Notes: generated by a model from the letters alone, not told the origin. Positions 10,969 to 59,212 are shown, counted from the stretch's first letter. The stretch is DNA of 64,000 bases from an uncultured Candidatus Bathyarchaeia archaeon (GCA_964463005.1 CAYWZZ010000001.1:30952-94951), one strand, 5' to 3'. Made by a program: numbers and translations.

Positions 10969-11733
10969 TTGTCTAGAATATTTAGAAGTGATGGAAAAAC
11001 CGTGATAGTACCGATGGATCATGGCGTAACCCTTGGACCCATCGTTGGCATTGAGAACATTTCTAAGATTGTTGAAAAGCTTAAGAAGGGTGGTGCCGAT
11101 GCCGTACTTGTCCATAAGGGATGGGCTAGATTGATAGATACGAGGGGAATATCGCTGATTCTTCACATGTCAGCGAGTACAACGCTTGGACCTGATCCAG
11201 ATTGGAAAGTAGCAGTAGCCTCTGTAAAAGAGGCCGTGGCACTGGGTGCCGATGGAATTTCCATACATATAAATATTGGATGTGAAAAAGAGCCTGAAAT
11301 GCTGAGCTTACTAGGTGCTGTTTCAGAATCTTGCGAAGACTGGGGTATGCCTCTTCTAGTCATGGCATATCCTAGAGGACCTAAAATATCAAATCAACAT
11401 GATCCTGAACTCGTCTCGCATGCAGCTAGAGTAGCGGCAGAACTAGGGGCTGATGTTGTTAAAACAAATTACACTGGAAGTGTTGAAAGTTTTAGAAGAG
11501 TCGTTAATGGATGCCCTATTCCAGTCGTCATAGCGGGTGGGCCTAAGGTAAATTCAGACAGGGAATTGCTTAACATGATTAAAAGCTCTATAGATTCAGG
11601 TGGAGCTGGTGTTTCCATTGGTAGAAATATCTTTCAGCATGAAAAGCCTGACCTTATAACTAAAGCGATAGTAGGCATTGTTCACGATGGGATGGACGTT
11701 GAAGATGCTATGAAAATACTACATGGCGGTTAG
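10969..11733 (+). CDS. aroA': 2-amino-3,7-dideoxy-D-threo-hept-6-ulosonate (ADH) synthase / class I (DhnA-type) aldolase
   Basis: RIFRSDGKTVIVPMDHG...ADAVL class-I aldolase (DhnA/FbaB) signature. It sits directly upstream of DHQ synthase II, the arrangement of the archaeal alternative DHQ pathway. Confidence 0.7.
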   Translation: MSRIFRSDGKTVIVPMDHGVTLGPIVGIENISKIVEKLKKGGADAVLVHKGWARLIDTRGISLILHMSASTTLGPDPDWKVAVASVKEAVALGADGISIHINIGCEKEPEMLSLLGAVSESCEDWGMPLLVMAYPRGPKISNQHDPELVSHAARVAAELGADVVKTNYTGSVESFRRVVNGCPIPVVIAGGPKVNSDRELLNMIKSSIDSGGAGVSIGRNIFQHEKPDLITKAIVGIVHDGMDVEDAMKILHGG

Positions 11734-11736
11734 AAC

Positions 11737-12780
11737 TTGAGTAAGGAACTTTGGGTTAAATTGAGGGAAGATCAGAGAAATTTAGGAGAATTTATCGATG
11801 AAGTTAAAGAATTTGTCGATTTTTTCCTAATTTCCGACTGGAAGCTTATATCTAAAGATAAACCACCAAATGTTAAAGTAGTATCGAAAACTGGTGGAGA
11901 TTTAAAACTTATAGACCGTGTAGATGAAGCTTCTCCAGGCTCATGTTTAACAGTGGAAGTCTCTAGTAGAGAGGATGAATGGAAGATACTTGAAGGGTCA
12001 AATAGGGGATGTAATTATGTCATAATCAAATGTTTGAACTGGAAAATTATACCTTTAGAGAACGTCGTGGCTAGACTTCATGGAAAGACAAAGATAATAG
12101 CTGAAGCTTCGAGTGTAGAAGAGGCTGAAACCCTAATTAACGTCTTGGAAGTTGGGGTGGACGGCGTTTTAGTGGAAAACGTAAACCCTGAGGATATTAG
12201 AAGGCTTAGTAGAGCTATTAGAAAGAGAGCTAACCGCTTAGAGTTGAAAAGTGCAAAGATAGTACTTATTAAACCCGTTAAACTTGGAGCACGGGTATGT
12301 TTAGATACATGTGATCTTTTAAGTGAAGGAGAAGGTGTCCTAGTAGGATGTCAATCATCAGGGCTTTTTCTAGTAGAGGCTGAAGTTCATGGAAATCCAT
12401 ATGTGGAAGCCAGACCATTCAGAGTAAATGCAGGACCACCAGCACTCTACATACTTGTTCCAGAAGGTAAGACTAGATATTTATCTGAGCTTAAAGCCGG
12501 AGATACCATTTTAACTGTTAAAAGGGATGGAACCTTCAGAGAAGTTGAGCTGTGTAGGGTCAAAATAGAGTGGAGACCTCTCAAACTAGTTGAAGTCGAA
12601 TATGCTGGTGCGATCTATAAAACCGTCGTGCAGGATGCTGAAACCGTAAGGTTTGTGACTAGCGATGGGTCTAAATCCATAACTGATCTTAAAATTGGTG
12701 ATGAAGTTCTCCTATATACTCAAGAGGGGGGTAGACATTTCGGAACACTTGTGAAATCTGAGAGGATAATCGAAAGATGA
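11737..12780 (+). CDS. aroB': 3-dehydroquinate synthase II (archaeal type)
   Basis: 347 aa in an operonic position between the aldolase homolog and aroD. Length and context fit DHQS-II. Confidence 0.75.
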   Translation: MSKELWVKLREDQRNLGEFIDEVKEFVDFFLISDWKLISKDKPPNVKVVSKTGGDLKLIDRVDEASPGSCLTVEVSSREDEWKILEGSNRGCNYVIIKCLNWKIIPLENVVARLHGKTKIIAEASSVEEAETLINVLEVGVDGVLVENVNPEDIRRLSRAIRKRANRLELKSAKIVLIKPVKLGARVCLDTCDLLSEGEGVLVGCQSSGLFLVEAEVHGNPYVEARPFRVNAGPPALYILVPEGKTRYLSELKAGDTILTVKRDGTFREVELCRVKIEWRPLKLVEVEYAGAIYKTVVQDAETVRFVTSDGSKSITDLKIGDEVLLYTQEGGRHFGTLVKSERIIER

Positions 12781-19466: not shown

Positions 19467-20229
19467 CTATTCTACTTTAAAGTTTCTCTTTAGGTATTCC
19501 AAAGCGAATTTAGCACTTTCAATTGAATCCATACTCGGTATATCGTTCTCAACTATATACCATTCTACTCCGGATGATTCGCAAGCTTTAACTACAGCTT
19601 TAAAATCTATCACGCCACATCCAAGCTCGATAAATCCTTTACTAACCCTATCCTTCATATCTTTAAGATGGACTAGAAAACACCTGTTTTTAAGAGCTTT
19701 TATAACTTCACAAGGGTCATACCCTGCATAATAGATCCAATAAACGTCTAGTTGGAAGAACACGTATGATGGGTCTGTGTTTTTAACAAGTATATCGTAT
19801 ATAGGGGTTCCATCAATCTTTCTCTCAAATTCTACAGCGTGATTATGCATACCAAACTTCAAACCATAATTCTCGGCGTCTTTACCTATGGAATTCATCT
19901 TCTCAGCTACTTTAAACACATAAACTTAAATCGTTGATACGTCTTACATCCGGCTCGGAAACCACATATTTAAGCCCGAGTTTATAAGCATAGTTGAAAA
20001 CAGTACTCCGCTTGTTGGATTCTATTACGTCAAAACTGACGTGGGTTGAGATCGGTTTAAGGTCGATTTGACCAAGAAATACTCTAAGCTCATCAACATC
20101 CGCTGTTAAAAATGGATGACCCGCGAATTCAACAAATCTATACCCGGATTCTCTAACCATGCGAAGAGCGTATCTATAATCCCTAGAGACCTTGTCCCTT
20201 ACAGTATAAAGTTGGAGGGCGACCTTCAT
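19467..20229 (-). pseudogene. Sugar phosphate isomerase/epimerase (xylose isomerase-like TIM barrel), split by a frameshift near 19912-19919
   Basis: ORF 19912-20229 encodes the N-terminal half (ALQLYTVRD...) and ORF 19467-19919 the C-terminal half (...GMHNHAVEFE...HLKD...). Removing one T from the AGTTTATG run would fuse them. Confidence 0.6.
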
Positions 20230-21365: not shown

Positions 21366-21731
21366 TCACTCTACTATCTTAATATGTGATCCCTTAGGGT
21401 TTAATTCTGCAAGTTCACTTATTGATAAGCATTTACATCCAGCCTTCGTAAGTTTGGCTTTAGCTGTTTCTGAGAAGCCTAGGGCAGCTACAGTAATGCT
21501 ATGTGATATTTCACCTGAACCTAAGACTTTACCCGGAACTACTACAATTTCACCTTCTGAAGTAAGTTTTGAAAGCTTTGAAAGGTTAACCTCTGCCATA
21601 AGCCTTCTAGGTCTTTTAAGTCTTTCAGCAATATCAGCCCAAAGCCTAGACTTATTGCCGAGTATTTGAAGAAATTTAATGGTGTTTATCAACGTCGTGT
21701 TCGACTTACCGCGTTTAACCATTTCAGACAA
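21366..21731 (-). CDS. rpl18e: 50S ribosomal protein L18e
   Basis: Positional and sequence match to L18e. Confidence 0.8.
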   Translation of the reverse strand: MSEMVKRGKSNTTLINTIKFLQILGNKSRLWADIAERLKRPRRLMAEVNLSKLSKLTSEGEIVVVPGKVLGSGEISHSITVAALGFSETAKAKLTKAGCKCLSISELAELNPKGSHIKIVE

Positions 21732-22560
21732 CCCCTAGCTCACTTAACTGGCTTAAAAAAGTTTCACCTTTCATTCTTAGAATCCTACATGCTTCGGATA
21801 CAACCCTCCACGCTGGTATGGAGCCGGTAGTTTCTAGGAAGAATATCAATGAATTTTTGTCAAAATCGACATTAAGAGCGTTCTGAGCACACTTATTAAC
21901 ACATTCATTACATAAATCACATTTAAGCGGATCCGCCACATATGCTTTACCATCCTTAAGGGTGAACACGTTTTTATGACATACATCTATGCATGAACCG
22001 CACCCCGTACACTTAGAATCCATTACTGAAATAACCGGATAATACTTATACGTACACCTGACGACGGGGGACCATTTAGCATGCTTAGTGGCTTTTCCAA
22101 GTCTAGCATAAGCTTCAAGTCTAACTCTCTGACCTGGAGCAAGTTTAACAATTGGGATTTTATCACTCACAGGTTTAATCTCTGGATTAGCCTCGTGAGG
22201 TTTAAGGTCTCCAGAATAAACAGTAGTTATACCATTTCCTTTGCCTTCAGCATCTAAAACTAAAACGGCGGAACACCTACTACAACCTGTTTCAGTTCCA
22301 CATCCACATTCCTCGGGAAGAACATATCGGTCTAGATCTGTTTTTAAAGGTATTAAGCCGAGCCTATGTGCTAAAACCTCGTCATACATAACTGACGTAT
22401 TTTCAATTATATACACGTCGTCTATAGCCATCACTGGGACTTCAGCCATCATTATCCTCCTCAGGGAATTCATAAGCCTTGGAGAAATACCTCTAACTAT
22501 GAAATTTACCTCAGTATAGCTCTTCTTTAAGATCCCTATCTGCAAACAGTTATCCTCCAA
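21724..22560 (-). CDS. rpoD: DNA-directed RNA polymerase subunit D (Rpo3) with Fe-S domain
   Basis: CTGCGSCIDVC...CDLCNECVNKC ferredoxin-like insert, typical of crenarchaeal RpoD. Confidence 0.9.
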   Translation of the reverse strand: MEDNCLQIGILKKSYTEVNFIVRGISPRLMNSLRRIMMAEVPVMAIDDVYIIENTSVMYDEVLAHRLGLIPLKTDLDRYVLPEECGCGTETGCSRCSAVLVLDAEGKGNGITTVYSGDLKPHEANPEIKPVSDKIPIVKLAPGQRVRLEAYARLGKATKHAKWSPVVRCTYKYYPVISVMDSKCTGCGSCIDVCHKNVFTLKDGKAYVADPLKCDLCNECVNKCAQNALNVDFDKNSLIFFLETTGSIPAWRVVSEACRILRMKGETFLSQLSELGVV

Positions 22561-22661: not shown

Positions 22662-23084
22662 ATGTCTGAAGAAGACAAAAGCGAAACTAAGAGTAGCAAA
22701 GAAGAGAGGTGGGGTATAGCACACATTTATAGCTCATCTAACAATACGATAGTTCATATTACAGATTTAACGGGAGCTGAAACAATAGCCCTATGTACGG
22801 GTGGTATGTTTGTTGACGCCGATAGACTTCAAGGCTCTCCTTATGCAGCCATGCAAGCAGCTTCGGCCGCAGCTGAAATAGCTAAGGAGAAGGGCATAAC
22901 GGCACTTCACATAAAGGTTAGAGCGCCTGGAGGTATTAAATCCAAGATTCCAGGACCCGGGGCCATGCATGCTATAAGGATACTAGCTAGAGCAGGTTTT
23001 AAAATAGGTAGAGTTGATGATGTTACACCGATTCCACATGATGGATGTAGGAGAAAGGGAGGCCGTAGGGGTAGAAGACCGTAA
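22662..23084 (+). CDS. rps11: 30S ribosomal protein S11 (uS11)
   Basis: ...[17 protein letters not shown]...RAPGG...[27 protein letters not shown]. On the opposite strand to its flanking partners. Confidence 0.9.
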
Positions 23085-23086
23085 AA

Positions 23087-23668
23087 CTACATTTTTTCTG
23101 AGGGCTCAAGTTCCCTCGAAACTTCTTCCATTTTACTCGTTACATGCATTGCTTCTATGGATGCCCTAATAGGATGCTTTGGGTCATTGAATGGGCTATC
23201 TGAAGCATAATGTATCTTATCCTCCTCTCCAGCTTTAACAAGGTAAGATGGCACTCTGACAACTCTATTATTAACCGCTATATGTCCATGCACTATGAAC
23301 TGCCTAGCTTGATGAATTGTTTTGGCTAAACCGAGCTTGTAGACAAGCGTTTGGAGCCTACGGTTTAAAATATCTTCCAATGTTAAATCCAACACGTGGT
23401 CTAACGTAGCAGATTCTGAAAGCAAACCCATACGTTTAAGTTTATCTAGAAGAACAGTTTCAGCTTTAACTCTAACCTCTTGAGGCTTAGCCAATAAACT
23501 CCTAGCCATAGCCCTTATGCGTGAAAGCTGAGTTCTATGTCTCCAAAGTTCACGTTTATTTCTAAGACCATATTCACCTAAGTAGCGCAATTCGAGTTGG
23601 AGCCTCTGCATATCCCAAGGCTTCTTAGGAGTTTCATACTTCTTCCGTTGTCTTTTAGGATCGCCCAA
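23087..23668 (-). CDS. rps4: 30S ribosomal protein S4 (uS4)
   Basis: MGDPKRQRKKYETPKKPW...YGLRNKRELW. Confidence 0.9.
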   Translation of the reverse strand: MGDPKRQRKKYETPKKPWDMQRLQLELRYLGEYGLRNKRELWRHRTQLSRIRAMARSLLAKPQEVRVKAETVLLDKLKRMGLLSESATLDHVLDLTLEDILNRRLQTLVYKLGLAKTIHQARQFIVHGHIAVNNRVVRVPSYLVKAGEEDKIHYASDSPFNDPKHPIRASIEAMHVTSKMEEVSRELEPSEKM

Positions 23669-23679
23669 ATTTCACACCT

Positions 23680-24141
23680 CTATGAAACCTTCTTCCTCTG
23701 AACACCTACAGTTCTACCCTTCCTACCCGTTGTCCTAGTTTTCTGACCTCTAACCTTTAAACCTAAGCTATGCCTCCAACCCTTCCAAGAGCGGATACTT
23801 TTCATAAACTCAATGTCTTGCTTAATCCTAAGCTCTAGATCGGAGCCTATCAGGTGCATATCTTTACCCGTCTCTAAGTCTTTACGTCTATTAAACATCC
23901 AACTTGGAATATTGAATTTTGAAGGCGCTTTTAGAGTAGCCTCTATTTTTTTAAGTTCTTCATCAGACAATTCGCCTAAACGCTTATTCGGATCTACGCC
24001 TACACTTCTGGCTATAGCCCAACCTAACGTAATGCCTACGCCCTTAATCTTCATAAGAGCGTAGGGGACTTTCTTAAACCCATCTAAGTCTGTATCAACT
24101 AAACGTACGATGTATCTGAGTCCTTCCGTCAAATACCGCAC
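23680..24141 (-). CDS. rps13: 30S ribosomal protein S13 (uS13)
   Basis: ...IKGVGITLGWAIARSVG... uS13 signature. Confidence 0.9.
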   Translation of the reverse strand: MRYLTEGLRYIVRLVDTDLDGFKKVPYALMKIKGVGITLGWAIARSVGVDPNKRLGELSDEELKKIEATLKAPSKFNIPSWMFNRRKDLETGKDMHLIGSDLELRIKQDIEFMKSIRSWKGWRHSLGLKVRGQKTRTTGRKGRTVGVQRKKVS

Positions 24142-24242: not shown

Positions 24243-26702
24243 TCACCATTTTAAAAAGCCGTACTCTAACATGGATCTAAATTCATCAACTGTAAGGTCT
24301 TTAGGGGTTTCAACTAAAATCTCAGCCCTGCTATTTGGAGGAATGCTTAGGTAATTTTCAGAATATTTCGCGTCGAGATTCCTAAGTTTAACGTAAACTC
24401 CATAAGCGTAGTTTTTAACGGTTAAAGTTACCTTAAATGTCCGTGACTTTAGTTTATTAACTTCAACATTTAAAATTGGATCTGGAAACTCTACATGTTT
24501 AAACTTGCCAATTAAGACGTCATTAATTACTTTACTTCCATTAAACGACACTTCTGCGACGGCTACGGCTCCTCTAAAATTCTCAACATCTACAATTAAA
24601 CATTCTTTCGCAGAGTTTGCTTCAATCTCTAGATCTTCAATGGTTTTACTAAACAATAATTCACCTGTAAGTTTCTGAATGGAAAGTTTTAAAACTCCAC
24701 GTATACATTGAAGTGTATCATTCACTATGGAGACCTGAAGATTTCGTCCTCTTAAATTTAATGCGATGTAAATAGGGCTGAAAGCCCTCTTAACGTAGTA
24801 ATAGGCAGGTTTAGGTCTAAAGTAGTAATCTATAAGGCTCCAGCTTATAACAGGCCAGCAATCATTAATCTGCCATATGAGACACCCATTCGTTTTAAAC
24901 ATTCTGCTTCTCCAATGGGATATAGCGGTTTTCAAAGCTTCTCCCTGATTAAGTTGCGTTAAATATATGAATTTTTCAAGGTTTTCCGGAACTCTAAAGT
25001 AACCTGCTAAAAACCTGTATAGTCTCTCAGCCCCTTCATGCATCTTATTATGCTATTCCATAACTTGACTTTGAACCCATCTATCTTCCTCAGCCGTAAA
25101 GGATTCAACGGTTTCAATACATGGAAAGGCTTGAAAACCAAACTCGCTGATAAACCTACCGTTATCCAGCAAATAGGCCCTCCAATCCCTCTACCCACTC
25201 CATACATCCCAGCTATGTCTATCGCCCTCTCTAGGACTATCGGGATCGTCTCCCCCATATGGACTACTAGGCCAATACGGTCTGGTAGGGTCAAGCCGCT
25301 TAATTATTTCAGGTATAACTTTATGGTAGATTTTCTCACCATAAAATCTATCCCTCACCCACCATCTAGCTTTAAAACCCCATTCATTTTCGTTATTTCC
25401 ACACCATAGTACTATAGATGGATGATTTCTAAGCCTCTTAACATTCTCCTCAACTTCCCTCTCAATGGAAGCTATGAAGAAGTCTTCTTCAGAATACTCT
25501 CCGCATGCGAACATAAAGTCATGCCAAATCATTATACCTAATTCATCACATAAATCGTAGAAATCGTCGGCTTCATACACACCACCACCCCAGACCCTGA
25601 GCATGTTCATATTCGCCTTAGATGTTGCTTCTAAAAGCTTTCTATAGATCTCTTTGTCAACTCTAGGCAGAAAACTGTCTGCTGGAATCCAGTTGGCACC
25701 TTTACAGAAAACGCATATACCGTTAATTTTAAATATGAAGCACTCTCCTTCTTCATCTTCAGTCCTTTGAAGCTCAATGGATCTAATGCCGAATCTGACC
25801 TTACGACTATCTAAGATAATATTTGCATTATTTAAAAGGAGGGCGTTAAGTGTATACAGGTATTGAGCCCCATAGCCTCTTGGATACCAGAGTTTAGGCT
25901 TTTTGACTTTAAGTTCAGAGCGAAAAATGTTTAACCCTTCTTTAGCCAATCCTTCTACGCATACTTTAACGTTTTCCTCCTCTATTTTAAAAATTAATCT
26001 AACATAACTCGGTTTAGTAGAGTAAACTTCAGCCTCAACTTCAACCAAAGCTTCTTCTTCTGAAATTCTTAAAGGTAATGCTGAAATGTAACCTAATCTG
26101 GCCTCATCGTATGCTAGCAGTTCAACGCTTCTCCATATACCAACAGTTGGCAATCTTGGATCCCAATCCCATCTAAATGAATACTGAGCCTTCCTACCAT
26201 ATACTCTAGCAGTGTAGAATGCGGCCCATAACTTCCCATATTTAGATTCCAGCATCTCCAGAACCTTTGATGGAGATTTAAATCTAACGACTAGTATGTT
26301 TTTCCCAGGTTTCACAAGTCCATCAACTTTAAAAATCCACGGGTGAAACATGTTACACGTTTCACCGAGCATTACACTGTTAAGCCAAATCTCTGCGTAA
26401 GTATCTAAACCGTGGAAAATGAGTTCCAGACAGTTCTTGCTGGCTATGTGATCTGAAACTTCGAATTCTTTAACGTATAACCAATCCTTCTCCTCAACCC
26501 ATGAAACTTCAAACTCGTTCATCCTATAGAAGGGATCTGGAATCACTCCATTTCTCATAAGGTCTAAATGAACTACACCTGGAACCTCAGCCTTTAACCA
26601 GTCTTCGGCGGTGAGATCTAACTTTGAAACATCTATACACTCATTAAATTCTAGCTTCTTAAAAAACCAAACGCCGTTAAGGGGGATTCTTATGATAGAC
26701 AT
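24243..26702 (-). pseudogene. GH2 beta-mannosidase-like glycoside hydrolase with two in-frame TAG codons (25191-25193 and 25053-25055)
   Basis: A single reading frame gives LRNHPSIVLWCGNNE (acid/base region), GDRHSWDVWSG[TAG]RDWRAYLLDNGRFISEFGFQAFP (nucleophile region) and ...VME[TAG]HNKMHEGAERLYRF.... The ORF track splits this into three pieces, but there is no frameshift. Confidence 0.65.
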
Positions 26703-34897: not shown

Positions 34898-35900
34898 CTA
34901 TTTCCACATCCTAGGATACGTGTTAGGCTTCATTATTACTCTTTCAGTTTTAACAGCTACACCTTTTTCTCTTTCAAGCATTTCCTCACTTGTCATCAAA
35001 GCTTTACCTAAAGCTACAAGTTCACCCTTAAGAGTAAATATTGCCACTAGATCATCAACTTCTATATCAGAGTTTAGCCTTACAATACCAGGTAATGCTA
35101 GACCTGCACCGTGACATATAGCGTCAACCGCTGTATCGCGGATCCAAATCTTCGGTATAAGAGCGGTAACCTCTTCCACAGGCTGAACGATAGACCTGAG
35201 TGGTTTTTCATCCCCAGCCCTATATGCTTCGACTGCGCCAACCAGATCCCTCAACGACGTTAAACCTCTATCTTCAGCAAAAGGACCAACTCTGGTCCTT
35301 CGAAGCTCTCTCATATGCGCCCCACAGCCTAAAACCTCGCCCATATCGTGTATCAATTTTCTGATATATGTGCCTGCTTGACAGCAGACTCTTAAAAGTA
35401 CATGACGCTTATCAACCTCTAGCACATCTATGTAGTAAATTCTCCTGGTTCTAAGAGCTTTTTTAACAGAAGATCTTAGGGGAGGCTTTTGGTAGATATC
35501 GCCCTGAAACTCTTCAGCAACTTCCCTAACCCTGTCCTCGGAAACATCATCATGAAGCTTCATTACACATACGTATTCTTTGCCTCCAGTCAATAGAACT
35601 TGGAGAACCTTTGTAGCTTCATTCAACGCTATAGGCAGTACACCAGTAGCGGGGGGATGTCTCCGAGGGAGACTCTAGAGTCCCCCCGTGACCAGCTTTC
35701 TTAACGTTCATAATCCTCTTAACGGTAGCTGTTACATCGTGACTCGTAGGACCAGCTGGTTTATCTAAAATGATGACTCCATATTCTAGATGTTCATCTA
35801 TGGTTCTTTTCCAAGGCGGTTTACCGTAAGCTTCATTTGTCTCTTCAAACGTTTTGTAAAGTACTTCTCTTTTAATTTCCCAAGGCGGTTGTAGCCTCAA
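34898..35900 (-). CDS. cbf5: H/ACA RNP pseudouridine synthase Cbf5 (TruB family), interrupted by a putative 16-nt BHB intron
   Basis: N-terminal exon (35675-35900) ends ...[10 protein letters not shown]-terminal exon (34898-35658) starts [17 protein letters not shown]... with TruB and PUA domains. Removing 16 nt restores the universally conserved GHGGTLDP motif. Confidence 0.8.
35659..35674 (-). other. Putative archaeal bulge-helix-bulge intron inside cbf5 (boundary ambiguous by 1-2 nt)
   Basis: Coding strand reads GGGGGGACUCUAG|AGUCUCCCUCGGAGAC|AUCCCCCC. The insert forms a GUCUC/GAGAC hairpin, and the flanking exons pair G6A/UC6. Confidence 0.55.
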
Positions 35901-43626: not shown

Positions 43627-43791
43627 CTAATTGTACTTCTTAAAGCCAAGTTTTGGAGCTACTTCTCTAAAACATTGACGACATAGCATAAGTCCATACT
43701 GCTGAATAACTGGGCCGTATGAGCCGCATCTGGAGCAAGGTCTAGAACCTTTACCAAACTTACGTTCCTTTTTAGGCTTCTGTTTAGCCAC
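43627..43791 (-). CDS. rps14: 30S ribosomal protein S14 type Z (uS14), zinc-binding
   Basis: Not in the ORF track (54 aa, GTG start). [54 protein letters not shown] with a CxxC...CxxC motif. Terminated by TAG. Confidence 0.8.
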
Positions 43792-49555: not shown

Positions 49556-50101
49556 TTGGTAGATATTATGGTTAGTTTAGCACCCTTTGTAGCATCTCCT
49601 CCGGAAGTTGTCCGCGCAATGCTTGAGTTAGCGCAAGTTTCCAAGGATGATGTTGTATGCGATATGGGTTGTGGAGATGGGCGAATCCTCTTTATGGCTG
49701 TTTCTGAATTTGGAGCGAAGAAGGCTATAGGTTATGAGATTAGGAGAGATTTATACAACATGGTATTCGATAAGATTATAAGTGAGAATCTATCGGATAG
49801 AGTGGTCGTCTACAATAGAGACTGTACAACGGCGGATCTTTCAGATGTCACCGTAATAACTCTATATTTAACGACATCTGGTAACGATAGGCTCAGACCC
49901 AAGTTTGAAAGAGAGGCTAAACCTGGTACTAGAATTGTCAGTCACGATTTCAGTATAACGGGTTGGAAGCCAGCTAAAATTGAAAGATTTGGCGGTCATA
50001 CCATCTACTTATACATAGTTCCAGACGCCTTCCGAGGGAAGCCTTACGAAAACGAAACTAAGGAGAAGACGCGAAGCTTTTGGCCTTTTGGAAGAATCTA
50101 G
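49556..50101 (+). CDS. Class I SAM-dependent methyltransferase
   Basis: VCDMGCGDGRI motif I. Confidence 0.65.
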   Translation: MVDIMVSLAPFVASPPEVVRAMLELAQVSKDDVVCDMGCGDGRILFMAVSEFGAKKAIGYEIRRDLYNMVFDKIISENLSDRVVVYNRDCTTADLSDVTVITLYLTTSGNDRLRPKFEREAKPGTRIVSHDFSITGWKPAKIERFGGHTIYLYIVPDAFRGKPYENETKEKTRSFWPFGRI

Positions 50102-50107
50102 CTAAAC

Positions 50108-50794
50108 GTGAAAAAACCCCAATTGAACCAAGTAGATTTAACTTTAAGGTTTGAAAATCCCATACTATTGTATGTTGGTGCTGAAGCCGAGGTTTACAGG
50201 GCTAAATGGTATGGAATAGATGTCGTAGTTAAACGTAGAATTTCAAAGCCATATAGGATTAGAAAACTGGATGATGAAATAAGGTTTAAGAGAACTATGA
50301 GAGAGGCTAGGATCTTACACTACGCCAAAAAGTCTGGAGTCCCCACTCCAACAGTATACTTCTTAGATCTGACAAACTGTATGATAATCATGAGTTTTAT
50401 TGAGGGGAAGAGAATTAAAGAAGCTTTGGGTAAATTTGATAGGGAGGAACGTATTAGAAAAACCGAACTCATAGGAGTATACACAGGTAGACTTCACCAA
50501 GCGGGGATACAGCATGGAGATTTAACAACTTCAAACATGATTTTAACAGGAGATGGAAGGATATTCTTAATAGACTTCGGTTTAAGCATATTCACAAACG
50601 ACGTTGAGGATATTGCTGTAGATTTAATACTATTCAAAAGGGCTTTAATGAGCACCCACTACATGTTTGCAGAGGAATGTTTTAAAGCCTTTCTTAAAGG
50701 CTATGTAAGCGTCAGAGGGAGAGACGTAGTTGATAGGGTTTTAAACAAGGTTAGAGATATAGAGAAGAGGGGGCGTTACATCGCCAGAAGCTAG
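50108..50794 (+). CDS. bud32: KEOPS complex kinase/ATPase Bud32
   Basis: ...HQAGIQHGDLTTSNMIL...FLIDFGLS atypical RIO-like kinase motifs, 228 aa. Confidence 0.8.
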   Translation: MKKPQLNQVDLTLRFENPILLYVGAEAEVYRAKWYGIDVVVKRRISKPYRIRKLDDEIRFKRTMREARILHYAKKSGVPTPTVYFLDLTNCMIIMSFIEGKRIKEALGKFDREERIRKTELIGVYTGRLHQAGIQHGDLTTSNMILTGDGRIFLIDFGLSIFTNDVEDIAVDLILFKRALMSTHYMFAEECFKAFLKGYVSVRGRDVVDRVLNKVRDIEKRGRYIARS

Positions 50795-51720
50795 GTTGTA
50801 GGTTGTGCCTCCAATTTTACAAGAGCCCTAAAAACCTTTGAAGCTCTCCCGATTGAAAGTTCTATAACATCACCAACTTGCTTACCCCGTAGAGACTTAG
50901 TTATATCATCCATAGAAGATATGTTAAACTCGTCAATTCTGAGAATGACGTCTCCAGGTCTGATGCCGGCTTTAAACGCAGGGCCGTTTTCAAACACACT
51001 TACGACTAGAACACCCCTCATAAACGATATGCCGTAGTATGATGCGATTGCCCTATTAAGGTCTATACCAGCTATGCCGATCCATGGTCTAGCGAGACCA
51101 TAGACTCGTATATCTTCGAAAATTCTTCTAACAGTATCCGACGGTACTGCAAATCCTATACCTTGAGCAAATGGCACAATTGCCGTACTCATACCCACCA
51201 TCTCAGCCTTCATATTGATCAGGGGACCCCCGCTGTTACCCGGGTTTATGGCAGCATCCGTCTGAATGATACGGCTCATTACACCTCTAGGGGTTTGAAG
51301 GGTACGGTTTAATGCACTTATAACGCCTATTGTAACAGTCGGCCCGCCAGGTAATCCCAGTGGATTACCAATGGCGACTACGAGTTGCCCGACTTTGAGA
51401 TTCTCATAATCGCAGAATTTGATCGGTTTTAGATTTGAAGCGTCTATTTTCAGGATCGCCACGTCCATCAGTTTATCCGCACCGATAAAGGAGGCTTCAA
51501 ATCTCTCACCATTATATAGTGTCACCTCTATCTGCTGAACCCCTTCTACAACGTGGTAGCTTGTAGCAATGTAGCCATCTTTATCTATTATCGTACCAGA
51601 GCCTACGCCTTTAACAGGCATTACTTGGAGAAGCATATCTCTACGCAATGCAATCGTACTCACGTTTACAACACTTGGAAGAGCTTCTTCAACAACCTTA
51701 ACTATTTTTTCCTCCTCCAT
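50791..51720 (-). CDS. HtrA/DegP-family serine protease with PDZ domain
   Basis: Catalytic motifs ...TSYHVV..., ...D..., GNSGGPLIN, plus a C-terminal PDZ domain. Confidence 0.8.
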   Translation of the reverse strand: MEEEKIVKVVEEALPSVVNVSTIALRRDMLLQVMPVKGVGSGTIIDKDGYIATSYHVVEGVQQIEVTLYNGERFEASFIGADKLMDVAILKIDASNLKPIKFCDYENLKVGQLVVAIGNPLGLPGGPTVTIGVISALNRTLQTPRGVMSRIIQTDAAINPGNSGGPLINMKAEMVGMSTAIVPFAQGIGFAVPSDTVRRIFEDIRVYGLARPWIGIAGIDLNRAIASYYGISFMRGVLVVSVFENGPAFKAGIRPGDVILRIDEFNISSMDDITKSLRGKQVGDVIELSIGRASKVFRALVKLEAQPTT

Positions 51721-52571
51721 TCTAAACCCTCCACTATATTTTTCATTTTAATGGCGTCGAAGTCGAGAACTGGAGATTCACTTACTATGACTGGTTTATA
51801 TCCGTTTTCAACTATGACTTCAGCTAGGATTTCGAAACTTGGGCCAAACGGTTCATCTAAAGTTCTATGTTTAACTTCTCCTTTATCACTGTATTCAACG
51901 TTTGTAAAGTGGAAGTGAAGCTTCTCAATGCCTCTAGAGCCTAAAACCTTTTCAATCTTCTCAAAGACTTTTAAATAATCGTCTTTGGAGTGGAGGCAAC
52001 CTCCACATCTAGCGTAGATGTGAGCCCAATCTATGGTGGGATATACTGAGCCAAATTTCTGACACATGGCTAAAATTTCATCTAAATTGCCAAGTTGACT
52101 AGGTTTACCAGTCGTTTCAGGACGAAGATAAACCTTAGACCCAATAACGCCCATATACTCTACCAGTTCATTTAAAGCTTTAAGACAGATTTCAAAAGCT
52201 TCCTTAGGCGAACGGTTTCCGTAGAAGCCAGGGTGGAAGACAATGCTTTCAGCCCCAAGCCACTCAGCCGCTTCCAAACAAGCTCTAATCCTCTCAATAC
52301 TCTTAGCTACAACGCTTTCATCTCCGGCAAGATTTATAAAGTAAGATCCATGCATTGTAACCCATACATCATTCTTTAGCGCTTCATACTTAAACTCCTC
52401 AGCGAGTTCGCGTCTAATTTGGGGTTTAACACTCCAACGTACGGCTTGATATTCGAAGGCATTTAACCCCTCACTTCTAAGATAGGAAGGTACTAGTGTA
52501 AGTGGACCATTGAATCCCACCGGTAAACCAGCTGGTCCGAATCTGACTTTATCCGCCAAGAAACCACCCAC
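51702..52571 (-). CDS. nfo: Endonuclease IV (AP endonuclease family 2)
   Basis: ...VTMHGSYFINLAG...VFHPG...HFHF... metal-binding pattern of Nfo. Confidence 0.8.
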   Translation of the reverse strand: MGGFLADKVRFGPAGLPVGFNGPLTLVPSYLRSEGLNAFEYQAVRWSVKPQIRRELAEEFKYEALKNDVWVTMHGSYFINLAGDESVVAKSIERIRACLEAAEWLGAESIVFHPGFYGNRSPKEAFEICLKALNELVEYMGVIGSKVYLRPETTGKPSQLGNLDEILAMCQKFGSVYPTIDWAHIYARCGGCLHSKDDYLKVFEKIEKVLGSRGIEKLHFHFTNVEYSDKGEVKHRTLDEPFGPSFEILAEVIVENGYKPVIVSESPVLDFDAIKMKNIVEGLEWRRKK

Positions 52572-53954: not shown

Positions 53955-55532
53955 CTAGCTTATAATATTCGTCACAAAACCTATTCCCCTAGTCCGACCT
54001 TCTCTGAATACAAACCAGTCTCCAGTTCTAATGTAAACAGGTCTGTACTTGAAGCCGAATTTCACATATGCTGTTACACCCGTTCTTAATGGCTCACGAC
54101 TAGACTCTAGAAGTTCAGCCGTCTGCCTTATTGTGTGAATATGTATCACAGCGTTATATCCCCTCCATATGGTTGTAGGATGATGGAGGATCGTTATCTT
54201 AGCTTCGAATACCCTGACAGGTTTTAAGATCTCAGATTTATCGAGAAGACACATGCCCTTTAAAACCTCACCATACTCTATATTGGATAGAGCTAAACAA
54301 ACATCTTGACCTGGGAAAACTCTTTGAACTGGGACTCTATGTAAGTGTATGGATTTAATTTTCACAAGCCTAGAACTTCCATCGTCGAATGGACCTATTT
54401 GAACGTAGTCATCAATACCTATGCTACCTTGAAGGACTACGCCGCTTACAACAACACCGACTCCTTTAACGTTAAATTTATCATCAACATACATCATAAA
54501 CGGCTCATTCAACTTCTCTTCCCACTTCATCCTCGGAGGAAGAAGGTTTAAGAAAAGCTTCAATAGGTTTAAACCTTCACCAGTCTTATTGGAAATAAGG
54601 AATACAGGCGTTACTCTCCCAGATTGTATCGTTTTAACAGCTACAGATATATCGTCCACTCCTCGAACTAATATTGGGATCTTATCTACACCAGGCATTT
54701 TCAAGAGCTTAAACACATCATCTAAGACGTATTCAATTCTCTCGTGATTTACCATGTCGATTTTACTGATCACCAGTATTATAGGGATCTTTAAAGCAAC
54801 AGCTATTCCTAAGTGCTCTTTTGTAGTACCTACGACCCCCGCGTTAGCCCCCACGACTAGTAGAGCATAATCGGGCGCCCTCCCCATTATACCCTTAAGC
54901 GTCGTCCTCAGGTATTTTTCATGCCCTCCAAGATCTATGAGGTTTATGATTTTAGAGCTTTTTAAGAAGACCTGTGATTCATCTAGGGGAGATGTAAGAC
55001 TATGATTCACTATGCAACCGTCCTCTGAAAACCCGATTGGATGGATGGATATTGAAGACGTTCTACCAGTTTTGACCTCATGTATATATCTAGCTACTTT
55101 ACTCATAGCTGATCCTCTACCGTTATCCAGTTCACCAGTCGTCAGAACTCCAACTAGACTAGACTTACCAGCATCAACATTTCCAATTACCGGAATCTCT
55201 AAGAGAATTGGAAGATTGCCTTCCCTAGAAACCCTTACATGAACTTCAGCTATTTTACCCAATCTACCAGTTCCAACTCTTAGAAGTCTACATTTAGCTC
55301 CAATCAACTTGGCAGCTTTTTCTAAAACGTTTAAAGATAGTTCAAGCGCTTTATCATCAAGCCCCACAGGGTCCCCGTCATCTGAAACACCTATTTCATA
55401 GAAGGCTTCTCCCCCACCTTCGTTAAGCCTATACCGCATTTGAGTAGCCAAATGTTCGATTGTTTTCTGATCGTCTTTTAAAAGAACGAGTTTATACTCT
55501 ACATTACCTTCATCCCTTTCCGCTTCTTTCAA
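53955..55532 (-). CDS. GTPBP1-family (EF-1alpha-like) GTPase
   Basis: GNVDAGKSSLVG P-loop, DLGGHEKY, ISKIDM motifs. About 525 aa with an archaeal GTPBP1-type N-terminus. Confidence 0.75.
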   Translation of the reverse strand: MKEAERDEGNVEYKLVLLKDDQKTIEHLATQMRYRLNEGGGEAFYEIGVSDDGDPVGLDDKALELSLNVLEKAAKLIGAKCRLLRVGTGRLGKIAEVHVRVSREGNLPILLEIPVIGNVDAGKSSLVGVLTTGELDNGRGSAMSKVARYIHEVKTGRTSSISIHPIGFSEDGCIVNHSLTSPLDESQVFLKSSKIINLIDLGGHEKYLRTTLKGIMGRAPDYALLVVGANAGVVGTTKEHLGIAVALKIPIILVISKIDMVNHERIEYVLDDVFKLLKMPGVDKIPILVRGVDDISVAVKTIQSGRVTPVFLISNKTGEGLNLLKLFLNLLPPRMKWEEKLNEPFMMYVDDKFNVKGVGVVVSGVVLQGSIGIDDYVQIGPFDDGSSRLVKIKSIHLHRVPVQRVFPGQDVCLALSNIEYGEVLKGMCLLDKSEILKPVRVFEAKITILHHPTTIWRGYNAVIHIHTIRQTAELLESSREPLRTGVTAYVKFGFKYRPVYIRTGDWFVFREGRTRGIGFVTNIIS

Positions 55533-57949: not shown

Positions 57950-59212
57950 CTACTGGTGGTATTTAAGAATTGCTGCAATTCCTCCGAAGCTTTTTAGAAG
58001 CATTTCTCCCTCTTCTGTTTTCGAAGAGATCACTTCGACTTTAACTCCCAGGTTTTCAGCCATATCTATAAGCTCATCTATTAGATCCTTCCTATCTTTT
58101 ATCCTAAATGTTTGAAGGCCGCAGTTTGCACATTTACGCGTAGTAAGTTCATTTTCCAGCATAGGTATATCTGTCAATTGAGCTGTAATCCATTCAGAGT
58201 ATCCGCAGTTTGAACACTCAATTTGAATCCTCTGAGTTTGAAGGTCCTCTGAAAGCAACAACACTTCAACCGTACCCTTTTCAAGATGGCGTTTAACTTC
58301 TTTTTCACCGTAAACAGCTAAACCCGTATCTTTGGACACTTGATCTAAAAAACTTTGAACGAGCTTCTTCTCCTCAATTCTTCTAACTTCTTTCAAAACA
58401 TCTGAAACTCTATCGATTACGTCTCTTAAGCCCGATTCATCTGCGTAAGCTGTATCTACTATAGCTATCACCTTTTTCTTAAGTATGTAGTTCATGTAAT
58501 CTCCTTCTAAGAAATATCTCTTAGTGGGACCCGGACCCCCCACTATTATACCCTTTAGACCATCCATGTTTAAGAATAGTGAGTCTGCATGCTTACCAGC
58601 TCTTCTAAAAAAATCGTTAAGCTCCATCTCTCTAAGTCTTTCAAATCTCCTAGCTGATTGACCACCAGCTCTATGTTTACCTGGTATTCCAGAGGTTATT
58701 TCTTGAAGAACCTCAAGACGATTACCGGCTAAAGTTGCAAATGTTGCTCTACTAGAGTCTATGAGAATCACCCCGTAAATCTCCTTCTCCCTAAGCATTT
58801 CTAAGAGAGGCTCGACGTAGAATTTTGAGCCGCAACCATAGTAGTATATGTCTATGGGCTCCGGGGGGATTATAACGTAAGTCTCCATCTTCTCAGAACC
58901 GGGACCATCTTGGGGGATAGCTCCACAGAAAATTATTAACCCATTTGGAGGAGTCTGCTTAAACAATCTAAGCCTCTGCATAACCTTTTCCAAAGCCGAC
59001 TGAACATTCTTACGAGTTCTATCGGATTTTATATTCATAGCAGTACTATACTCTTGTCTAAGATTATTCATGACGTCTGATATAGGCCTACCAGACGGTA
59101 CGTAAAGTGAAACTAACTCAGTACCCCGCCCTTCCTTCGAAGCAAGCATTTTAAGCGTCTTCCTAAGCTTGTAAAGCTCGACCGAACTATACTTCTCTCT
59201 AATTCTAGCCAT
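57950..59212 (-). CDS. prf1: Peptide chain release factor aRF1, with CxxC...CxxC zinc-ribbon insertion in domain 3
   Basis: NIKS and GGQ motifs present. Insert reads ...IECSNCGYSE...RKCANCGLQTF... Confidence 0.9.
   Translation of the reverse strand: MARIREKYSSVELYKLRKTLKMLASKEGRGTELVSLYVPSGRPISDVMNNLRQEYSTAMNIKSDRTRKNVQSALEKVMQRLRLFKQTPPNGLIIFCGAIPQDGPGSEKMETYVIIPPEPIDIYYYGCGSKFYVEPLLEMLREKEIYGVILIDSSRATFATLAGNRLEVLQEITSGIPGKHRAGGQSARRFERLREMELNDFFRRAGKHADSLFLNMDGLKGIIVGGPGPTKRYFLEGDYMNYILKKKVIAIVDTAYADESGLRDVIDRVSDVLKEVRRIEEKKLVQSFLDQVSKDTGLAVYGEKEVKRHLEKGTVEVLLLSEDLQTQRIQIECSNCGYSEWITAQLTDIPMLENELTTRKCANCGLQTFRIKDRKDLIDELIDMAENLGVKVEVISSKTEEGEMLLKSFGGIAAILKYHQ

Follow-up and report, generated by a model that had tools for sequence, protein, structure and literature searches.

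Glycoside hydrolase family 2 (GH2) beta-mannosidases of solved structure, such as 5n6u (Dictyoglomus-type) and BtMan2A of Bacteroides thetaiotaomicron (2je8/2vjx), have a five-domain architecture. An in-frame UAG with homology continuing downstream of it is the criterion by which pyrrolysine (Pyl) genes are found, and Pyl is used foremost in methylamine methyltransferases (PMC9723677). In Pyl archaea UAG is usually rare as a terminator (<6%), but not universally (see PMC9723677 for an exception). Here, we analyzed a GH2 beta-mannosidase gene that has the same five domains and is punctuated by two in-frame UAG codons. It lies at positions 24243-26702, minus strand, of a 64,000-nucleotide stretch of DNA from an uncultured, hot-spring-type Candidatus Bathyarchaeia archaeon (GCA_964463005.1 CAYWZZ010000001.1:30952-94951). 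This whole stretch is termed the window, and all positions are counted from its first letter. It is very probable that this GH2 gene is a young, fixed unitary pseudogene in one Bathyarchaeia population. The first-pass annotation of this DNA had favoured a pseudogene over amber read-through, and the analysis bears it out: the orthologues carry TGG at both sites, conserved motifs are damaged, and TAG is an ordinary stop codon here, interchangeable with TAA and TGA.

Translation of 24243-26702 gives a single GH2 beta-mannosidase frame of 819 codons that ends in TGA. The only internal stops are the TAG at codon 504 (25191-25193) and the TAG at codon 550 (25053-25055); the first-pass annotation had placed both correctly, and the peptides that it quoted are also right. 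In the stop-bridged translation, Pfam matches run from residue 8 to residue 811, across all three pieces, and make up a complete set of GH2 beta-mannosidase domains. In gene order, the domains are Glyco_hydro_2_N2 (PF22666, 5e-54), Glyco_hydro_2 (PF00703), Glyco_hydro_2_C (PF02836), Mannosidase_ig (PF17786) and Ig_mannosidase (PF17753), that is, a sugar-binding N-domain, an immunoglobulin (Ig)-like domain, a TIM barrel, a mannosidase Ig/carbohydrate-binding-module-like domain and a C-terminal Ig domain. The two stops divide this frame into an N-terminal fragment of codons 1-503 (25194-26702, minus strand), the sole part expected to be translated, a stretch of 45 codons between the stops (25056-25190, minus strand), and a C-terminal remainder of codons 551-819 plus the stop (24243-25052, minus strand). 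The last of these holds the end of the TIM barrel, Mannosidase_ig and Ig_mannosidase, and was called as a separate open reading frame (ORF) of 266 amino acids (aa). Three ORF pieces had been reported to share one frame. This is so for the ORFs of 503 and 266 aa, but the 95-aa ORF (25007-25294) is offset by 1, and the in-frame middle piece is instead the 45-codon stretch, which is absent from the ORF list. That ∼314 more sense codons stay open past the first TAG in DNA of 40% GC would be far beyond chance.

The best named protein matches were to Candidatus Bathyarchaeia/Bathyarchaeota, and the genes flanking GH2 are archaeal ribosomal-protein and RNA-polymerase genes. Intact GH2 orthologues of 818-819 aa, 80-90% identical, were found in all six of the related Bathyarchaeia lineages examined. 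The 818-aa P0002 (L005-L008) shares 90% aa identity with the N-terminal piece of the window gene, and P0003 (L009-L010, where L009 is GCA_038854475.1), also of 818 aa, is 80% identical to the window. A third lineage, taken from the cluster listing, is represented by the 819-aa P0131 (L011), 87% identical to P0002, and L012, L013 and L014 are each 82% identical to P0002; L011-L014 are four species-representative genomes obtained from a genome scan. The order GFO/IDH/MocA oxidoreductase, GH2, rps13-rps4, inverted rps11 and rpoD is shared with the P0002 and P0003 contigs. Because gene order is the same on both sides, the P0002 and P0003 genes are true orthologues of the window gene. The flanking genes are conserved in L005-L010, and of the four species representatives three have matching flanking DNA.

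At codons 504 and 550 all six related lineages read TGG (Trp), and all six keep the GWDWGP motif. The comparison with orthologous loci that the first-pass annotation had proposed therefore returned a sense codon, TGG, at both sites in six lineages and at the same locus. Trp had been predicted for the second site, correctly, and Lys or Arg for the first, where Trp is again the residue found in the six closest lineages. Since all relatives carry TGG and are uninterrupted, each TAG of the window arose from a Trp codon by one G>A transition on the branch leading to the window lineage. Among 113 more distant homologues the column of codon 504 holds W, G, L, M or V, and that of codon 550 holds H, A or F. 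Hence, UAG is conserved at neither codon, with TGG in the six lineages and sense codons in the 113 further homologues, and judging from these columns neither stop would occupy a site where a special amino acid is expected.

We then considered whether the stops are real. Both TAGs were present in five separately assembled records, among them L001 (JGI 3300017406), L002 (ENA ERZ27245635), L003 (JGI 3300009590) and L093 (JGI 3300008019). A sixth, short contig, the 1.8-kb L004 (Logan SRR5468564), spans the first TAG only and is 100% identical in the overlap. The records of this population are 99.96-100% identical to the window; L001 (contig Ga0185307_1000005) is identical across the 21.5 kb compared and probably the contig from which the window derives, and L093 differs by only 3 single-nucleotide polymorphisms in the 7.5 kb compared. 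In the population variant of L093 (P0121, 3001-5460), one further G>A change is non-synonymous and alters the conserved RVWGGG motif (G372D). An intact or one-stop allele of the window lineage was sought in the 90% identity clusters; the members listed, which are all but two in the case of cluster 2, include neither. An artefact of sequencing or assembly would have had to place the identical two TAGs in JGI, ENA and Logan assemblies from different samples; furthermore, the TAGs are substitutions, not homopolymer indels, and the flanking genes are intact. Since independently assembled records of the same population carry the stops as far as they cover them, such an error is excluded for practical purposes, and we rate it as extremely improbable. 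We conclude that both stops are fixed in the window lineage and are not an artefact.

The catalytic residues were placed by way of the close orthologue P0002, which shares its motifs with the window gene. Along its full length P0002 matches beta-mannosidases of known structure (5n6u, E = 6e-245; BtMan2A, E = 1.7e-153), and the GNNE, SEFG and WDW motifs of both enzymes align with it. From these alignments (5n6u and 2vjx/2je8), the acid/base Glu is that of GNNE, Glu438 in the window (25389-25391), and the nucleophile is the Glu of FISEFG, Glu520 in the window (25143-25145). We take Glu438 and Glu520 to be the equivalents of BtMan2A E462 and E555, after Tailford et al. 2007, in agreement with the chain numbers of the alignment. 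The codons of both catalytic residues survive, but the TAG at codon 504 separates them, and the residues do not lie on one polypeptide. Because Glu520 sits between the two stops, the 503-aa product lacks the nucleophile and everything after it.

These results suggest the following course. The ancestral state was a normal 818-aa GH2 exo-beta-mannosidase, intact at the same locus in the relatives examined. In the window lineage two TGG Trp codons each underwent G>A to TAG, and translation should now stop at codon 504. The resulting fragment of 503 aa would include the acid/base Glu but neither Glu520 nor the C-terminal domains. Lacking the nucleophile and the C-terminal domains, this fragment should be catalytically dead, and it is presumably either inactive or not made. 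On these grounds the window copy should not be filed as a functional GH2 member.

The stops are not the only damage. In place of the GWDWG of the active-site motif, the window has RWDWD (26160-26174, minus strand), as a result of G177R and G181D. The two glycines are present in 99% and 96% of the 113 homologues, respectively, and in all close relatives, so that the GWDWGP expected of a functional GH2 enzyme reads RWDWDP here. In the EYPEE motif, P404S (25491-25493, minus strand) replaces a proline that is present in 100% of the 113 homologues. In addition, there is a lineage-specific insertion of one Ile codon in NANI-I-LD (25815-25817, minus strand, the span being that of Ile296, one of the II pair 295-296) at a position that is a gap in every other homologue. 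The claim that the gene has no indels thus holds for frameshifts, of which there are none, but not for this in-frame, one-codon insertion. All four changes occurred on the window branch only, at columns that are 96-100% conserved in the 113 homologues. Counted by branch, the window has 3 changes at columns ≥96% conserved and the sister has 0; P0002 has 0 changes even at columns ≥90% conserved.

Both stops arose at TGG codons, and we examined whether this is unusual. Transitions account for 122 of the 130 substitutions on the window branch, G>A being the commonest class, and the GH2 gene has 30 TGG (Trp) codons. Under this branch spectrum, TGG>TAG makes up 33% of the possible nonsense hits; the probability that both stops are TGG>TAG is 0.11, and that of two TAGs of any origin is 0.17-0.21. 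That both stops are TGG>TAG is therefore not unusual; it is the commonest route to a stop in a Trp-rich gene. The same pattern is the sole point that favours a different explanation, namely that adenosine-to-inosine (A-to-I) editing of the middle adenosine restores UGG: both UAGs stand at an ancestral UGG, and A to I would restore Trp exactly. A-to-I editing of stop-loss sites occurs in some filamentous fungi, but we know of no mRNA A-to-I editing system in archaea. Moreover, the pattern is expected by chance (P ∼0.11) from the mutation spectrum and the Trp content, the two sites share neither structure nor sequence context, and the damage to the motifs would be left unexplained. We consider editing to be vanishingly unlikely.

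We next asked whether UAG is anything but a stop in this DNA. The terminators of the 72 non-overlapping ORFs of ≥100 aa in the window are 26 TAG, 24 TAA and 22 TGA, so that TAG is the commonest. It ends rps13, rps4 and rps14, the last (43627-43791, minus strand) as had been noted in the first pass. In the window rps4 ends in TAG, where the two sisters have TAA at the same position; among orthologues, the rpoD terminator is TGA, TAA or TAG, and that of rps9 is TGA, TGA and TAG. The release factor aRF1 of the window (57950-59212) is canonical (TIGR03676, 544 bits), with NIKS and YxCxxxF motifs. ARAGORN and Rfam detected only tRNA-Leu(CAG) and tRNA-Met(CAT) in the 64-kb window, and no tRNA with a CUA anticodon. 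Likewise, no pyl family was found among the ORFs scanned in the window or in the precomputed annotation of 15191-36702. On both points the first-pass reading stands. RNA folding of the 123 nt from each TAG showed nothing specific to TAG: a modest hairpin follows the first TAG (z = -2.15), but the sister, with TGG in that place, forms it equally (z = -1.92), and no structure follows the second TAG (z = +0.25). The contexts of the stops are unlike, TAG-AGG and TAG-CAT, and share no structure or sequence.

When TAG was treated as sense, three candidates, including GH2, were obtained, and no other homology-supported gene in the window proved to be interrupted by TAG. The first pair, at 10969-11733 and 11737-12780 (plus strand), consists of a DeoC-type aldolase and a 3-dehydroquinate synthase II, and the second, at 49556-50101 and 50108-50794 (plus strand), of a methyltransferase and a RIO/Bud32-like kinase. 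All four are complete, separate genes, each with an end-to-end Pfam match; the shared frame of these in-frame pairs parted only by TAG is a coincidence and not a sign of read-through fusions. An EF1A/SelB-family GTPase at 53955-55532 (minus strand) was also considered as a SelB-like factor, but it falls below the NCBIfam cut-offs for selB (136 vs 242 bits) and EF-1alpha. This 525-aa protein, encoded 2.4 kb from the aRF1 gene, has an N-terminal extension of ∼110 aa, a G1 motif GNVDAGKS and a G4 motif SKID. Presumably its motifs are of the GTPBP1 type rather than of the aSelB or aSelBL type. A SelB-like GTPase was once proposed as EF-Pyl (PMC3037878). The GTPase of the window is not evidence for recoding.

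Several observations weigh against a pseudogene. Over the whole branch, the non-synonymous/synonymous counts for GH2 are 45/85 in the window, 32/74 in the sister and 161/391 for 21 neighbouring genes, and the GH2 ratio is not significantly above that of the neighbours (p = 0.24) or the sister (p = 0.49); therefore, GH2 stayed under constraint through most of its divergence from the sister. A stricter polarisation, restricted to nucleotides at which five relatives (the sister plus four outgroups) all agree, gave 32 non-synonymous and 36 synonymous changes on the window branch and 15 and 36 on the sister branch, but this difference is only borderline (odds ratio 2.1, p = 0.06). No frameshift is present, and the positions of the two stops vary in distant homologues, so that a read-through product could in principle accept another residue at either. 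Finally, a full Pyl system exists in Sifarchaeia although UAG makes up 21% of their stops, and pylSBCD is carried by JdFR-11, a Bathyarchaeota genome (PMC9723677). High TAG usage alone does not exclude pyrrolysine.

Some of these observations also favour decoding of UAG, by pyrrolysine, by a CUA suppressor tRNA or through leaky termination, so that the gene would remain functional. The 819-codon frame is intact, both catalytic Glu codons are kept, the whole-branch counts are not significantly raised, the stop sites are variable, and Pyl systems, which are known from at least one genome of Bathyarchaeota, are compatible with frequent use of UAG as a stop (PMC9723677). Set against this, the UAGs are unconserved, with TGG in six of six related lineages, and glycoside hydrolases are not among the Pyl proteins. 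The 64 kb hold no pyl gene and no CUA-anticodon tRNA, TAG ends about one third of the genes and even stands at the end of rps4, where both sisters use TAA, and the one hairpin found does not depend on the TAG. No other gene in the window needs read-through, and read-through cannot repair G177R, G181D or P404S. Decoding is thus very unlikely. Taking decoding and editing to UGG together, it is highly improbable that a full-length beta-mannosidase is still made in the window lineage. Were this the case, a glycoside hydrolase of a Thermoproteota member would be subject to amber suppression, to Pyl insertion or to editing of its mRNA.

A unitary pseudogene of recent origin would accommodate the constraint data. 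The window branch has ∼24 more GH2 substitutions than the sister branch, although the branch lengths of the other genes are equal (552 vs 543). Of all random point mutations in GH2, 4.4% create a stop, or one per ∼23 substitutions, and the excess of ∼24 substitutions thus fits one to two stops. A short neutral period would account for one to two stops, about three hits at conserved columns and one small indel, and the gene would have been inactive over about the final quarter of the branch, counted from the divergence of the P0002 lineage; these figures agree with one another. G177R and G181D may be earlier than the stops.

A further possibility is that the 503-aa N-terminal fragment, with its sugar-binding, Ig-like and partial TIM-barrel domains, has been kept as a non-catalytic protein or one of new function, and that only the downstream part is decaying. 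The 503-aa ORF is indeed intact in all assemblies, and the strictly polarised counts, split at the first TAG, are 19 non-synonymous and 21 synonymous upstream and 13 and 15 downstream, so that neither half is more decayed. The equality of these ratios also means that the N-terminal part shows no special protection. G177R, G181D, P404S and the variant G372D all lie inside the fragment, and a TIM barrel cut before the strand of the nucleophile would be unlikely to fold. Retention of the fragment is therefore highly unlikely.

Gene disruption near this locus is not confined to GH2. A second broken gene, AP_endonuc_2 (xylose-isomerase-like TIM barrel; 19467-20229, minus strand), lies 4 kb away. 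It is interrupted by a one-base T insertion at ∼19910-19923, where TGTG-TTAAAG has become TGTGTTTAAAG, leaving ORFs of 105 and 150 aa; in the sisters L005 and L009 the orthologue is one intact gene of 253 aa. Because read-through cannot rescue this frameshift, ordinary gene loss is operating in the window population. An intact AP_endonuc_2 paralogue is found at 51702-52571. In L091 (P0135, 3001-7896, JGI 3300005860), which belongs to a sister lineage and comes from Washburn Spring, Yellowstone (PMC7380581), GH2 loses its similarity to L005 at nucleotide 1890, and the DNA past this point is unrelated and encodes a Phage_integrase-family protein of 428 aa. Here GH2 is probably truncated by an integrated element, with an assembly chimera as the alternative, and the truncation suggests that the GH2 enzyme is dispensable in the clade. 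Another disrupted sister allele, P0127/L092 (JGI 3300042910 Ga0453288_0089), was discounted: it has frameshifts in several genes, including GH2 and an adenosine-kinase-like gene, and these are probable indel errors of assembly rather than biology.

Two other features of the window were observed. The cbf5 gene (pseudouridine synthase; 34898-35900, minus strand) is called in two pieces that overlap, one ORF of 93 aa (DKCLD) and one of 242 aa (TruB_N/PUA). At ∼35658-35673 the GAU of the catalytic Asp in GGTLD|PP is split by an insert of 16 nt, whose removal gives one frame. By manual reading, the flanks of the insert could form a relaxed bulge-helix-bulge, made up of an outer helix GGGGGGA/UCCCCCC, a helix of 4 bp (CUCU/GGAG) and two bulges of 3 nt each, AGA and ACA. 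Both sisters carry the insert, L005 at the same length of 16 nt and L009 at 17 nt and with another loop, and for this reason it looks like a pre-mRNA intron. An archaeal cbf5 pre-mRNA intron is known from Desulfurococcales and Sulfolobales (PMC2738675), and the insert described here is a candidate for such an intron in Bathyarchaeia. The second feature is rps11 (22662-23084, plus strand), whose usual operon partners rps13-rps4 (23087-24141) and rpoD (21724-22560) are on the minus strand. This is a single-gene inversion within a normally co-directional cluster, and it is the same in the sisters L005 and L009.

For annotation, the 503-aa and 266-aa ORFs should be merged and flagged as a single beta-mannosidase pseudogene, and the window population should not be credited with beta-mannoside hydrolysis via this GH2 locus. 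Beyond annotation the locus is of little importance. It is a clean, early-stage pseudogene, with two nonsense changes, three conserved-motif residues replaced, one in-frame insertion and as yet no frameshift, and programs meant to separate recoding from decay could be calibrated on it. The usual screen for Pyl genes, which looks for an in-frame TAG with homology downstream of it, yields false positives that comparison with sister lineages resolves.

Compared with Pyl genes of the mtmB/mtbB/mttB type, the window GH2 gene likewise has an in-frame UAG beyond which homology continues, but its UAG is unconserved in orthologues, it is not a methyltransferase gene, and UAG is the commonest terminator in the window; neither a pyl gene nor a tRNA-Pyl lies within the 64 kb. 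Relative to 5n6u and BtMan2A, it has two premature stops with the nucleophile past the first, the glycines on either side of WDW have been replaced (RWDWD), and so has P404. The intact sister orthologues (P0002/L005-L008, P0131/L011 and P0003/L009) occupy the same locus, between the GFO/IDH/MocA oxidoreductase gene and rps13-rps4, and are of equal length bar one codon, but they have TGG at codons 504 and 550, GWDWGP and EYPEE, and they are without the extra Ile. The closest likeness is to ordinary bacterial and archaeal unitary pseudogenes, in which, as here, the gene carries disabling point mutations that its intact syntenic orthologues lack, these are fixed in the population and a neighbouring gene is also disrupted; a beginning relaxation of constraint may be a further shared feature. 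The window gene differs from them in nothing notable and is simply at an early stage, before any frameshift or deletion, and the GH2 case is an already-known, ordinary kind of feature.

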